Below, in pieces: positions 22,132 to 33,658 of a stretch of 41,975 bases of DNA (position 1 is its first letter; each line of letters starts with the position of its first letter). Location: the NCBI GenBank assembly GCA_045632025.1, contig JAZQVW010000140.1:1-41975 (forward strand), given 5' to 3'. A model generated the notes under the pieces. It was not told where the DNA came from. It saw only the letters and a list, made by a program, of their open reading frames with translations, and searched no databases. The translations under genes were made by a program, and so were the position numbers. This DNA comes from Candidatus Avispirillum sp. GTDB lineage: Bacteria > Bacillota > Clostridia > Oscillospirales > CAG-272.

Positions 22132-22171
22132 AAAAACTCCGCTGCAAAAGCGTGATGTCCTTAACGGAGAA
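22132..22171. repeat. attL of the integrated element (outer arm is the left half of a terminator stem, inner arm is the element end)
   Basis: AAAAACTCCGCTGCA-AAAGC-GTGATGTCCTTAACGGAGAA is the reverse complement of 33620-33658 except for the 5-nt centre and one arm mismatch. Confidence 0.8.
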
Positions 22172-22378
22172 AACGAAAAACCGAATAGGATAACAGAGAA
22201 AGGCAGCATAGTCTATGATGGCTATGCTGTCTTTTGCATTGTTTGATTATAGAAAAGTGAACTTGATTGAAAGCGTCGCAGAAATGCGGTGTTTTTTTGA
22301 ATATTATATCGAAAATCACTGGACTTGTGGAAAGTGTTGTGGTATGTGTTTGTGTTGCAAAAAGGAGGTGCAACGCAC

Positions 22379-22663
22379 ATGACAACACTTGAAGATCTGT
22401 ATTACGGTAACATCAGTCCGCACGAAAGGTACATAAAGCGCGGTTCGAGAGTCGATCAACTCGTAAAGCTCATATGCAAAAACGAGGAAAGCCTAACGGC
22501 AACGCTCACTGAGCAGCAGAAAGAAACCTTCGAAAAGTTTAAAGACTGCCAAAGCGAACTTGCAGGGTTAACCGAGCGAGATGCGTTCAGGGATGGCTTC
22601 ATCCTTGCAGTGCGAATAATGGTCGAAGCGATGGAAGGGTTAGAAACGGTGGATGACATATGA
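22379..22663 (+). CDS. Small element-backbone protein, hypothetical
   Basis: ATG at 22379 after AAAGGAGG. MTTLEDLYYGNISPHE… resembles, from memory only, a family common on clostridial transposons/ICEs. Its stop overlaps the next start. Confidence 0.6.
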   Translation: MTTLEDLYYGNISPHERYIKRGSRVDQLVKLICKNEESLTATLTEQQKETFEKFKDCQSELAGLTERDAFRDGFILAVRIMVEAMEGLETVDDI

Positions 22664-23370
22664 AAAAACTAATAATCCTTATTCTCTGCTGTGGGGTGGT
22701 GCTTGTGAGTATGGTGGGATGCGGTGGCAACACCGCACCACCGCCTACCGAGAGTCCATCAACAACGGTATCGAAAACGATAATAACAGAAACACCTACC
22801 GAAACAACACTGCCTGTAACGGCGGTAGAGCCAACTGAGCAAGAAAAAGAGCCTGTTCCCACCGAGGACAAGGAACCGGCAACCGAGACGACCGTGACCG
22901 CCACAGAGCCAACAACGACACAGCCAACAGAAAAAGCAACGACCACTGTAACAAACACCGCTAATGAAAAGGTTACTCTTCCGATTGAGAAAACCGTTGA
23001 AAGCACAACACCGCAGCTTACAGAAAGCGAAACGTCGGAAGCTGAACCGCCAAAAGAAGAACCAAAATGCGAAACGGAACCTATGAGGGTGACCGAGCCG
23101 GAACCTACAGAAAGGCCTGCTCCCTTTGATATCGACTACTGGATCGCATACGCAAGGAGCTACGCCGAAAGCAAAGGACTTATACTGAGCGATACGGCGG
23201 TGGATTGTTGGGACAACCCCGTCCGAGCAGGCGCACACTGCATTTTCCTCGAAAGAGATATTCAAAGCCGGCTTGACCGCTATGCAAAGGATGAGGACAT
23301 CGCCGATGTGTGGATCTGGGCAGAAGCCACGGACAACGACTGCTATGACATTTATATCGGCTACGCTTAA
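22660..23370 (+). CDS. Lipoprotein with T/P/E-rich linker and a small C-terminal globular domain
   Basis: Signal peptide with lipobox (LVSMVGC), a low-complexity linker and a C-terminal DIDYWIAYARSYAESKGL… domain. Confidence 0.75.
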   Translation: MKKLIILILCCGVVLVSMVGCGGNTAPPPTESPSTTVSKTIITETPTETTLPVTAVEPTEQEKEPVPTEDKEPATETTVTATEPTTTQPTEKATTTVTNTANEKVTLPIEKTVESTTPQLTESETSEAEPPKEEPKCETEPMRVTEPEPTERPAPFDIDYWIAYARSYAESKGLILSDTAVDCWDNPVRAGAHCIFLERDIQSRLDRYAKDEDIADVWIWAEATDNDCYDIYIGYA

Positions 23371-23447
23371 AAACAAAATAATTCCAAAACCAGGGCACTC
23401 ACTGGACGCGGCAATCCAACAGAGAAAACAAGAAACGAATAGGCCTA

Positions 23448-23482
23448 AAAATTCTGCTTAACATGGGCAGAATTTTTGTTTT
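23448..23482 (+). terminator. Intrinsic terminator at the backbone/cargo boundary
   Basis: AAAATTCTGC/GCAGAATTTT stem followed by TGTTTT. Confidence 0.65.
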
Positions 23483-23502
23483 ACAACATTTTCTCAAATT
23501 AA

Positions 23503-23531
23503 TTGAAATATTCACGATTTCGTGATATAAT
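23503..23531 (+). promoter_or_regulatory. Promoter with embedded perfect palindromic operator
   Basis: TTGAAA (23503-08), 17-nt spacer, TATAAT (23526-31). The spacer contains TCACGA-TT-TCGTGA (23512-23525). Confidence 0.7.
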
Positions 23532-23557
23532 ATAGACCAATGAAAGAGGGGGTCGTT

Positions 23558-30659: not shown

Positions 30660-31165
30660 AGTGAATTTTTCATCGGGATAGTGTCAGAATTTCCTATCAA
30701 GAAGAAAACCCATAGAACAAAACCCAGGAATTACTACAACAGAAAAAGAGAAAAGATAACCACCACGGAGCGCCCATGTGTCGCCCACAGACCGCCTGTG
30801 TGCCGAGGAACGCAGAGATGCGAGGAAACACCCGACCAAAAGAAAACCGCCCGTTTGGGGCGATTTGAGGGCAAGGTTGGAACGGCAAAATGAGGTGTGA
30901 TGTAAGGCAGCTTTCAGGCATTTTCGATGGGTCGAAAATCAAGCAGGAGAAAGAGTCGGGGTCGTAAACGCCCCTCGACTCGGGTCACAGCGGACGGCAA
31001 CGCCGACCGCACAAGGGTTTTTGGCATTTTCGTTCTTTTCCCGAAGTGGTACCACTTTCGAGGATAAGGAGTCAATTTAGGCGGTGTGGAGTGCCAAAAG
31101 TGCCGTGAAACAAGGAAAATCATAGGCGACAATATAGGTGTCGTAAGCGGAAAGGAGAATTTACT

Positions 31166-31570
31166 ATGGCTACTAACAACAAAATCAAGTTTCCTTTTTG
31201 GGTAACACCAAAAACGATGGAAACCGTGAAAGAAATGTACAAGGACGATGATTGCCGGAGCCAATCGGAATTTATTGAGAAAGCGATAAACGCATATGTC
31301 GGCTATCTACGGGCAGATAACAGTCCAGGAATGCTGCCGAATTATATGGTCTCCACGATGAAGGCTATTGTGGACAGCAGCGAAACACGAATGTGCAGAA
31401 TGCTGTTCAAGCTGGCGGTGGAGATGGCGATCACGATGAACGTCCTCGCAGCTCACTGTGATATAGAAGAAGGAAGTCTTGCTAACCTTCGCCAAAGCTG
31501 TATCGACGAAGTGAAACGAATTAACGGAACGCTTGGATTTGAAGATGCCTACTATTGGCAGAAGGGCTGA
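31166..31570 (+). CDS. Element-backbone protein with a ribbon-helix-helix-like N-terminus, hypothetical
   Basis: AAAGGAG RBS. The RSQSEFIEKAINAY motif resembles CopG/RHH proteins. The position upstream of the recombinase suggests a regulatory or directionality role. Confidence 0.55.
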   Translation: MATNNKIKFPFWVTPKTMETVKEMYKDDDCRSQSEFIEKAINAYVGYLRADNSPGMLPNYMVSTMKAIVDSSETRMCRMLFKLAVEMAITMNVLAAHCDIEEGSLANLRQSCIDEVKRINGTLGFEDAYYWQKG

Positions 31571-31586
31571 GAAAGGAGAACGGAAC

Positions 31587-31790
31587 ATGGATTATGAATT
31601 ACTGAAAAAGCGCAGAGAGAAATATCTAAAATTACAGAGAGAATTAGAGGAAGAACAGCATATCGGTCTCGGTTACGTGCTGACCGTAGAGGGAAAGCAG
31701 TATCCCGTACTGTCTTGTTTCTCTGTCAGTGGAAAAACGGAAGAAGCAAAGGACAAACTGAAATACCTTATCAACGGTCGAAAAAGTTAA
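31587..31790 (+). CDS. Small (67 aa) element-backbone protein, hypothetical
   Basis: ATG at 31587 after AAAGGAG. It lies between the RHH-like gene and the recombinase, a position often occupied by small Tnp accessory proteins. Confidence 0.45.
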   Translation: MDYELLKKRREKYLKLQRELEEEQHIGLGYVLTVEGKQYPVLSCFSVSGKTEEAKDKLKYLINGRKS

Positions 31791-31905
31791 CAAAACTGTT
31801 TCAGCAAAGTCGCTGGACTACTCGACCGAGTTGTGATATGTTGTTGCCGTATCCTATTCGGTTTGATTTGGCAGAGCCGCACTCGGCTCGGAAAGGAAAC
31901 GTGTA

Positions 31906-33567
31906 ATGAAATCAACCGAAAGCAAAAATTTAATAACCGCCATATACTGCCGCCTGTCCCAAGAGGACGATCTGCAGGGCGAATCCAACAGCATCAAAAA
32001 TCAAAAGTTAATACTACAGCAGTACGCAGAGCAGCACCGATTCCCGAACATCCAATTTTATGTGGATGACGGATACTCGGGAGCGAATTTCAACCGTCCC
32101 GATTTCAAGCGGATGATGAACGACATCGAACAAGGCAAGGTTGGAATCGTCATTGTGAAAGACCAATCCCGTCTCGGCAGAGATTATCTGCAAACGGGAA
32201 TGCTGATGGAGATCACCTTCCCCCAATACGACGTTCGGTTCATCGCCGTCAACGACGGTGTGGACAGTGCCAACGGTGTCAGCGACTTCTCCGGCATCAA
32301 GAATTATTTCAACGATTTTTATGCCCGCGATACAAGTCGCAAGATCAGAGCCGTACAGCGTGCCAAAGGTGAGCGAGGAGAACGAGTCGGAACCACCATT
32401 CCATACGGATATATGAAAGGCCCGAATAACCCGAAGCAGTATATCCCCGATCCCGAAACCGCACCAATCGTGAAACGAATCTTTGAGATGTACGCAAGCG
32501 GAATCGGTATCGTGAAGATCTGTGACAGACTGTCCGCTGAGAAGATCCTCTGCCCAAGCGTGTACGCCTTTCGGAAAAGCGGAAACAAATCAGGCAACCC
32601 CGATTTGAGCAGACCGTATCATTGGGCGCAGAACACCGTCCGCAAGATGCTGTCCAATCAGGAATATGTGGGAGACACCGTAAACTTCAAGACCTATTCC
32701 AAGTCCAACAAGCTGAAGAAAAGGCTGAAGAACGATCCTGAAAATATTCTCATATTCAAGGACACCCACGAAGCAATCATTGACCGCAAAACTTTTGAGA
32801 TGGTGCAACGGCACTTCGCAGGACGGAAACGCCCCGACAAGCAAGGTGAGATGGACAAGTATGCAGGATTCCTCTTCTGCGGTGAATGCGGCAAGCGGTT
32901 ATACCTCCACCGAGGGAAAACCGTCAAGCCGGAAAACAATAACTTCCAATGCGGAGGATTCCAAAGCAGAACCACCGAATGTACCGCACACTATATCCGC
33001 GAGAGTGTCCTCGACACCATCGTACTGCACAACCTCAGAACTGTGACCGCCTTCGCAAGAGATAACCCCGACGAGTTCTATGCGATGGCAACGCAGAACG
33101 GTGAGGAAGAAGCGGAAAAGTTTTACCGCAATGCCAAGTTACAAAAGGAGCAGCTTGAAAAGCGAATCCAAGACCTGGACAACATCATACGGTGCTTGTA
33201 CGAGGACAGAGTATCGGGAAGAATCACACCCGAACGCTACGACTTGATGGCAAACGGATATGAGCATGAGCAAGCAGAAAAGAAACGGGAGTTGCAGGAA
33301 CTTACGGAGAGCATCGAAAGAATGGATATGCGTGACCAGTGTATACAGCAATTCATTCGTGATGCAAAGCGGTATATCGAGATGCCGAAGCTTACACCCG
33401 AACTGCTGCGAGTATTCATCCGCAGGATAGAGGTGTACGAAAAGTTCGAGAAATACTCACGAACAGCAGGCAATCCCATCATTATCCGCTACACCTTCCG
33501 CCTTCCCGAACAGGACGGAGTACCTGCAATCAAAGTCCTTGCACAACCCACAGCAAAAACCGCATAA
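31906..33567 (+). CDS. Large serine recombinase (TnpX-like)
   Basis: N-terminal resolvase domain with the catalytic Ser context [11 protein letters not shown] and [10 protein letters not shown]. Also a recombinase domain, a zinc ribbon (CGECGKRLY…FQCGG…C) and a C-terminal coiled-coil/DUF4368-like tail. Confidence 0.95.
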
Positions 33568-33619
33568 AAAGTAATAACCGGAAGGTTTTTACACCTTCCG
33601 GTTACATACCACCCACCAA

Positions 33620-33658
33620 TTCTCCGTTAAGAACATCACGGAAATGCAGCGGAGTTTT
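33620..33658. repeat. attR of the integrated element
   Basis: TTCTCCGTTAAGAACATCAC-GGAAA-TGCAGCGGAGTTTT is the reverse complement of attL apart from the core. Confidence 0.8.

Follow-up and report, generated by a model that had tools for sequence, protein, structure and literature searches.

How does a mobile element come to lie between the two halves of what looks like a single transcription terminator? The question is raised by a 41,975-nucleotide (nt) stretch of Candidatus Avispirillum sp. DNA (contig JAZQVW010000140.1 of GCA_045632025.1, an assembly of 1.41 Mb that is 63% complete), hereafter the window, in which a D-Ala-D-Ala carboxypeptidase gene and a GH43 glycoside hydrolase gene converge on an insertion. 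We found that positions 22147-33644 are an integrated non-conjugative element of 11,496 base pairs (bp), counting its crossover dinucleotide once. Judging from sequence comparisons, we put a probability of about 0.85 on the reading that this element was moved by its own TnpX-like large serine recombinase into the loop of a terminator hairpin, with the recombinase reading the sequence of two half-sites in a dyad target.

The ends of the element form an inverted repeat with unequal centres

At the two ends of the element we found a 39-nt inverted repeat (22133-22171 against 33620-33658) in which a 5-nt centre is the sole differing block besides one mismatch. The left end (22132-22171) reads AAAAACTCCGCTGCA AAAGC GTGATGTCCTTAACGGAGAA, with an A-run and then CTCCGCTGCA leading into the centre, and the right end (33620-33658) reads TTCTCCGTTAAGAACATCAC GGAAA TGCAGCGGAGTTTT, with TGCAGCGGAG and TTTT following the centre. 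When one end is compared with the reverse complement of the other, the arms match at 14/14, 7/7 and 12/12 positions with a single C/T mismatch, and the centres AAAGC and GGAAA differ, just as the sequence-only reading of this DNA had described. In a repeat search of positions 21000-35000, this pair was the top inverted repeat (87% complementary) and the runner-up had arms of 26 nt; by our own estimate, the ~1e8 position pairs in 14 kb would give about 5e-8 such pairs by chance. The arm motif has one copy per orientation in the entire 1.41-Mb assembly, and when the left end was used as a query against the assembly it matched itself and the right end, with no others.

Sibling elements separate host DNA from element DNA

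In two sibling elements, the recombinase is nearly the same protein as in the window: P0004 (96% identical) lies in an NCBI assembly (locus L037) and P0003 (97% identical) in an ENA contig (L038). Both siblings share the window backbone (30006-33644, + strand) at 90-92% identity (by blastn, 92.5% for L038 and 90-91% for L037, where the alignment ends exactly at 33644) and carry different cargo. Homology to L037 begins exactly at 22147 on the left, where a conserved left end of 47 nt (22147-22193, + strand; 95.7% identity to L037:787-833) is followed by cargo-specific DNA, and it ends exactly at 33644 on the right; beyond these points the sequence is locus-specific. Since the sibling homology goes no further than the predicted ends, we assign the outer 14-15 nt of the repeat to the host and its inner arms to the element. 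These boundaries fit a reading of the ends as attachment sites and are incompatible with a reading as terminal inverted repeats.

Sites with and without an element were compared as well. The gene flanking L038 encodes a phosphoribosyltransferase, and the identical protein is encoded on other contigs, of which three are occupied (L146, L147 and L149) and one, from a Logan assembly, is empty (L148). In the empty contig, an intact hairpin (ACACCCTGC...GCAGGGTGT) and a T-run come right after the stop codon; in the occupied contigs of the L038 type, the same sequence runs to ...CGCGATA and then passes into the element arm, with TA as the core. A second sibling, P0009 (88% identical recombinase), was compared through its flanking DUF2752 gene. 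Here, two contigs from two different runs (L292 and L293) are empty and hold an intact hairpin, consisting of an A-run with TCACTTCCC, TTTTC, and GGGAAGTGA with a T-run, and in two others (L290 and L291) the element sits in the loop of that hairpin with AA as the core. Both sibling empty sites are thus hairpins directly after a stop codon with the crossover dinucleotide within the loop. We also found the identical recombinase P0009 at three different flanks, and P0003, P0004 and the window recombinase occupy three different insertion sites. Sibling boundaries and empty sites together support what had been proposed for the window from its two ends, namely that they are attachment sites made by splitting a terminator.

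The crossover register defines attL, attR and the reconstructed parental sites

The empty and occupied forms of the L038 site set the register of the crossover: the element side runs to CAC-GGA, after which come the two bases of the shared core, TA there and AA in the window. A register of GG-AA-AGC was rejected since it needs AT where the empty site has CT, and it was replaced by GGA-AA-AGC. On the + strand of the window, attL is then made up of an outer, host-derived (B) arm at 22132-22146, which is the A-run plus the 5' stem half CTCCGCTGCA of the split terminator, is the reverse complement of 33645-33658 and is absent from the sibling elements; the crossover AA at 22147-22148, placed by the sibling empty sites and the junction alignment; and an inner, element-derived (P') arm at 22149-22171, which is AGC plus GTGATGTCCTTAACGGAGAA and is kept in L037 and in 34/401 genomes of the order. 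In attR, also on the + strand, the inner (P) arm at 33620-33642 is TTCTCCGTTAAGAACATCAC plus GGA and is kept in L037, L038, L286-L289 and many genomes; the second copy of the AA, placed by the same two lines of evidence, is at 33643-33644; and the outer (B') arm at 33645-33659 is the 3' stem half TGCAGCGGAG plus a T-run, as seen in the sequence, the repeat search and the folding of attB. The 2-bp core is all that is repeated at the element ends, and there is no longer target duplication.

In this register, the predicted attP is ...CATCAC-GGA-AA-AGC-GTGATG..., with two 20-nt inverted arms around an 8-nt spacer that contains four A and has the core on its dyad axis. The joining of the inner arms proposed in the sequence-only reading is retained here; its register is not, as that attP was one A short. 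A head-to-tail junction in a sister subtype (L129), CAC-CCA-TT-AGC-GTG, likewise has an 8-nt spacer. The reconstructed attB would be ...CTCCGCTGCA-AA-TGCAGCGGAG... (...GCTGCA-AA-TGCAGC...), with the A-run outside on the left and the T-run outside on the right. It begins 8 nt after the carboxypeptidase stop codon and folds at -22.2 kcal/mol compared to -4.8 for shuffles, so that its earlier description as a terminator hairpin holds, and the optional third A once allowed in its core is removed by the sibling register. We predict that this attB is an intrinsic terminator that works in both directions and lies between the carboxypeptidase and GH43 genes, which converge on it.

A TnpX-like recombinase is encoded beside the right end

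The gene adjoining the right end (31906-33567, + strand) encodes a large serine recombinase with, in Pfam, a Resolvase domain (PF00239, E 5.6e-23), Recombinase (PF07508, E 2.3e-22) and Zn_ribbon_recom (PF13408, a zinc ribbon; E 1.5e-10) domains C-terminal to the catalytic domain, and DUF4368 (PF14287, E 3.4e-10) at residues 470-531. Its N-terminal 115 amino acids (aa) match the catalytic domain of TnpX from Tn4451 (2MHC) with an E of 2.9e-38, and its CRLS motif aligns with ERLS of TnpX, which places the serine nucleophile; the match to the SPbeta integrase has an E of 3.7e-17. Many close homologues were found. The sequence-only reading had taken paired ends of this kind as the product of large serine recombinases, and the presence of these domains beside the right end agrees with that.

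Directly upstream lies a conserved gene for a 67-aa protein (31587-31790, + strand), 90% identical to a 67-aa gene of L038, which is possibly an accessory or directionality factor.

Terminator hairpins are occupied across the order

To see where else such arms occur, we searched for the arm motif, allowing at most one mismatch, in 401 genomes sampled from the order, and fetched 75 places that we read outward from the arm. The motif is present in 34 of the 401 genomes, and a reversed control pattern in 0/401. On either side of the elements the flank has a near-universal layout, in which the first 5 nt are followed by 8-12 G-rich nt and a T-run. TTTT starts between +10 and +27 in 71/82 junctions, compared to a fraction of 0.14 at random window positions. 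In the window subtype, for which we had 21 half-sites from about 12 insertions, T is found at +14 in 21/21 and G at +8 in 16/21; positions +12 to +17 are T-rich and +1 to +5 are nearly random.

In eight cases, attL and attR could be paired within a genome. The flank similarity of these pairs is 10-19, and at least 13 in seven of them, compared to a between-genome mean of 6.8. The eight attB sites rebuilt from these pairs fold at -16 to -26 kcal/mol (shuffles: -4 to -7), with the core in the loop and with stems that differ from one site to another. Where the flank was long enough to judge, 15 of 32 flanks contain a gene (150 aa or longer) that is oriented to the crossover and ends 13-32 nt away from it, and eight further genes are oriented to the crossover from a greater distance. 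Near-identical recombinases, and even one identical protein, thus occupy many terminator hairpins whose stems vary around a fixed layout at the crossover. Sites that obey a strict version of this rule are rare, with 77 hairpins in the window's own 1.41-Mb assembly; the strict filter was built after seeing the data, and the count indicates rarity and is no formal test.

In the sister subtype, we also observed miniature copies of about 330 bp (L129, G397:C35:10410-10956; L132, G397:C57:22813-23365), which consist of the two arms and an internal terminator-like hairpin, have no recombinase gene and are inserted in hairpins. One of them is followed head-to-tail by another copy, and this is the source of the attP-like junction CAC-CCA-TT-AGC-GTG given above. 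The miniature copies resemble non-autonomous derivatives that a serine recombinase moves.

Half-site readout and the explanations that compete with it

In the mechanism that we favour, the recombinase would have recombined attP with attB at the AA in the hairpin loop to give attL and attR. Each subunit would read a degenerate half-site on double-stranded DNA, with a G-rich patch at about +6 to +8 and a T-tract at +12 to +17, and only a dyad of A-tract, palindrome of about 24 bp and T-tract, which is a bidirectional terminator, would suit both subunits. Such a target would be a gene-sparing landing site that is present in any host. Excision by the same recombinase would restore the terminator exactly, if TnpX-type enzymes integrate and excise unaided, as has been reported (PMC5704250).

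An alternative is that the recombinase recognises structure, that is, the extruded cruciform or hairpin of a palindromic terminator, and not sequence. The differing stems of the targets, which have mainly palindromy in common, the nearly information-free positions +1 to +5, and a crossover that always falls in the loop would all be expected of such an enzyme. We nevertheless consider it unlikely: G at +8 and T at +12 to +17 stand at fixed distances that suggest base or groove readout, attP is an ordinary imperfect dyad with an 8-nt spacer, and the crossover is off-centre in the loop at several targets (G235, L037). In addition, large serine recombinases in solved complexes bind half-sites in B-form DNA.

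A second alternative, to which we give a small chance, is that specificity is low and that selection leaves only harmless insertions in terminators. TnpX relatives are described as having low integration specificity (PMC5704250), and the DUF4368 clade has been termed multi-targeting (bioRxiv 10.1101/2021.11.05.467528). However, selection on its own gives no account of the fixed register to the T-tract, with T at +14 in 21/21 half-sites and the core always in the loop, it would not exclude other harmless intergenic DNA, and the pattern fits 71/82 junctions. The idea that the 39-nt repeats are terminal inverted repeats of a transposase-type transposon, which the ends viewed alone do resemble, or a chance repeat, has next to nothing left in its favour, as no transposase gene was found between the ends, the duplication is limited to 2 bp, the outer 14-15 nt differ between siblings and are a host hairpin that is intact at empty sites (a sibling comparison that refutes the transposon identity), and the expectation for a chance repeat is negligible.

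Several points weigh against insertion by half-site readout into a terminator loop. The collections searched contained no element-free genome or contig of the same species, and the window's own empty site is thus unseen; a circular or attP form of the window subtype was not found, the attP pattern being absent from viral and metagenome contigs; only 5/10 known targets pass the strict filter and the others fit the half-site rule loosely; the junctions are drawn from related genomes and are not fully independent; and the argument for sequence readout uses a logo built on 21 half-sites of about 12 insertions. The sequence-only reading had pointed to related genomes as the place to find the uninterrupted attB, and the pattern did not turn up in any of 61 genomes of relatives. 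In public genome contigs we found 14 matches to the attB pattern, all of them chance hairpins with the same stem and none homologous to the window flanks, and a relaxed attP pattern gave at least 120 chance matches, none with arms. Exact-protein look-ups of the window carboxypeptidase and recombinase returned no identical record; the closest carboxypeptidase is 92% identical, which accounts for the lack of a same-species empty site in these collections.

Transcription across the ends of the element

The hybrid attL and attR sites are no longer terminators. Inside the left end, 50 nt from attL, a terminator scan found a terminator-like hairpin of 16 pairs with a T-rich tail (22198-22235, + strand) that faces transcription from the carboxypeptidase side. 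Inside the right end, 40 nt from attR, lies a second one of 13 pairs with the tail TACTTTTTAT (33574-33605, - strand) that faces transcription from the GH43 side; this hairpin belongs to the conserved backbone and has the same sequence in the siblings. With such a hairpin just inside each end, transcripts that leave the carboxypeptidase gene and enter the element probably do not run far, and the hairpins would replace the termination that was lost. We keep the earlier proposal that integration splits the terminator. Transcription into the element was proposed along with it, and given the predicted function of these hairpins we regard long read-through as doubtful.

The element carries a conserved backbone and variable cargo

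All long open reading frames (ORFs) between the element ends are on the + strand. In the backbone, the gene at 30372-30659 encodes a 95-aa winged-helix protein (HTH_36, PF13730, E 1.1e-15; PHROG replication-initiation families) that resembles a replication initiator or the N-terminus of DnaD and is also present in L037, L038 and L286. The gene at 31166-31570 encodes a conserved 134-aa protein with a weak ribbon-helix-helix match (Pfam RHH_1, E 0.0016, below the cut-off), and L038 has a 134-aa gene at the equivalent position. At the start of the backbone, within 30024-30273, we noticed a perfect extended sigma-70 consensus (TTGACA, 18 nt, TG, TATAAT; score 12/12) and, after it, a hairpin of 89 nt whose arms are 26 nt long (30185-30273), which precedes the HTH_36 gene; this may be a regulatory or origin-like site. 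An Rfam match of the long hairpin (30187-30271) to a miRNA was sub-threshold and was treated as spurious.

The region at 22325-29747 (+ strand), where the siblings carry other cargo, is variable. In order, its genes encode a DUF6809 protein, a 236-aa protein, an HTH_26 regulator (23540-23770), a 986-aa protein with a C-terminal DUF6273, a 291-aa ORF with weak likeness to AbiGi, a 204-aa ORF and a 539-aa ORF. Searches of Pfam, PHROGs, PADLOC, NCBIfam and PDB gave no solid functional assignment for the cargo proteins. The GC content of the cargo is 37-40% compared to 45-50% in the flanks. Within the 986-aa ORF there are two 120-nt direct repeats (25779-26030; 70% identical, 132 nt spacing), and its protein therefore has an internal repeat. 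We found no capsid, tail, terminase or lysis genes, the PHROGs matches being a regulator, the replication-initiator-like protein and one family of unknown function, and no relaxase, Mob or resistance family was matched by the element proteins in Pfam, PHROGs or NCBIfam.

In the siblings, the cargo is SIR2_2, a ResIII helicase and an N6_N4 methylase (L037) or a type I restriction system (L038). Among L286-L288, which have the same backbone, we also noted an Eco57I/TaqI_C-type methylase-endonuclease and a NOV_C protein. The lineage seems to shuttle defence-type cargo.

The host locus and its terminators

The carboxypeptidase gene on the left flank (20835-22124, + strand; Peptidase_S11 and PBP5_C, PF00768 E 2.8e-34) has orthologues in 30/31 genomes of the genus, and the convergent GH43 gene on the right flank (34010-35431, - strand; PF04616 E 3.5e-29) is syntenic in the relative G012. 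In G012, the two genes converge 43 nt apart with one hairpin between them, and the relatives of the genus (82-84% DNA identity) each have a different terminator hairpin at the orthologous place. These hairpins agree with a reading of the rebuilt hairpin as the terminator that serves the carboxypeptidase/GH43 pair.

In the window, a host spacer of dispersed repeat modules (33660-34009), outside the element, lies between attR and the GH43 stop codon. It has 52 matches in its own assembly and is absent in G012; its modules of about 105 and 119 nt are rich in GC palindromes, and many copies are at contig ends.

In the congener G016, the carboxypeptidase terminator has the stem AAACTAGGGCAAC/GTTGCCCTAGTTT, with a loop that apparently holds a 34-nt perfect palindrome, and two contigs meet there (L278/L279; the end of C87 and the start of C101). 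In its inner bases (...ATCAC-GCT-AA), the palindrome is similar to the sister subtype's arm and core. We considered a related element in this terminator and rejected it: what is there is the 34-nt palindrome, which is multi-copy in that genome.

The window also contains an unoccupied, bidirectional terminator-like dyad at 37470-37507, in which an A-run with GCTCGGATGA is mirrored by TCATCCGAGC with a T-run. Its neighbours are an ORF at 35638-37494 (- strand) or 35623-37464 (+ strand) and an ORF at 37773-39458. The dyad passes the strict target filter, and its centre is TG/GA, not AA.

Relation to known recombinases and elements

Like Tn4451 and Tn4453, the element has a recombinase with a TnpX-type catalytic domain and is small and non-conjugative, and, as in TnpX-type elements, the empty site shares a 2-bp core with the two ends (PMC3158075). 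Integration and excision by TnpX reportedly need no separate directionality factor, and Tn4451 is described as having low target specificity (PMC5704250), whereas the targets here are terminator hairpin loops. Unlike Tn4451 and Tn4453, the element has no match to a Mob/relaxase family (tnpZ, Mob/Pre type) or to a resistance family (catP). The core is AA here and TA in L038, as opposed to the dinucleotide of Tn4451, which is reportedly GA. With no Mob gene found and a different core, the element is a member of the TnpX/TndX-like clade outside the Tn4451 family proper.

The DUF4368 clade, which includes TndX-like enzymes, is described as 'multi-targeting' (bioRxiv 10.1101/2021.11.05.467528; PMC10083194; PMC13137831). 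Like the members of this clade (TndX-like; Cp36, Enc9 and Pc01; Durrant et al.), the lineage studied here has DUF4368, recombinases that are at least 96% identical at unrelated sites, and a degenerate motif around a fixed core. The motifs in the papers on the clade are AT-rich or 'more complex', whereas the motif here is the layout of a bidirectional intrinsic terminator. The papers on the DUF4368 clade, Tn4451 and TnpX (bioRxiv 10.1101/2021.11.05.467528, PMC10083194, PMC13137831, PMC5704250, PMC3158075) do not mention targets that are terminators, hairpins or palindromes, and full-text literature searching found no account of these recombinases targeting terminators.

Phage serine integrases (A118/LI, Bxb1, phiC31 and SprA of SPbeta) resemble this system in the imperfect dyads of attP and attB, the central 2-bp core, the hybrid attL and attR, and the Resolvase, Recombinase and zinc-ribbon domains. 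In contrast, they use one unique attB that is usually intragenic, and this lineage uses many intergenic attB sites that share layout and not sequence. Class C group II introns also use the stem-loops of rho-independent terminators as a generic, gene-sparing target (PMC8643678); however, as RNA-based retroelements they recognise a DNA stem-loop and insert on the downstream side of the hairpin, and here a DNA recombinase exchanges strands inside the loop. In Tn916, a terminator close to the end is described as shielding the element from host read-through (PMC11658703), and this insulating terminator has a parallel in the hairpins at 22198-22235 and 33574-33605, whose function here is predicted. 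Tn916 differs from this element in its tyrosine integrase and AT-rich targets.

What terminator targeting would mean for the family

Large serine recombinases are usually described as strictly site-specific (mostly intragenic) or, in the DUF4368 clade, as loosely multi-targeting. Taken together, these data suggest that the loose motif is a functional feature of genomes, the bidirectional terminator hairpin. A motif of this kind explains how one enzyme can land in many places and hosts without breaking genes, and it also explains the similar flanks of each insertion and the broken assemblies at these elements. We think it probable that the whole TnpX-like DUF4368 clade evolved to use the bidirectional-terminator architecture (A-tract, palindrome of about 24 bp with the core in the loop, T-tract) as its attB. 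If this is true, the clade has a host-independent, gene-sparing safe harbour, its 3.6-kb backbone could carry interchangeable cargo, often restriction or defence genes, among many Clostridia, and it would spawn non-autonomous miniature derivatives of about 330 bp. The half-site rule (core in the loop, G near +8, T-tract at +12 to +17) concerns a clade that is already used in genome engineering. In gut-type Clostridia, the lineage is a widespread vehicle of interchangeable cargo (type I and type IIG restriction; SIR2/helicase/methylase), and terminators appear to offer its recombinase family a safe insertion site of general use.

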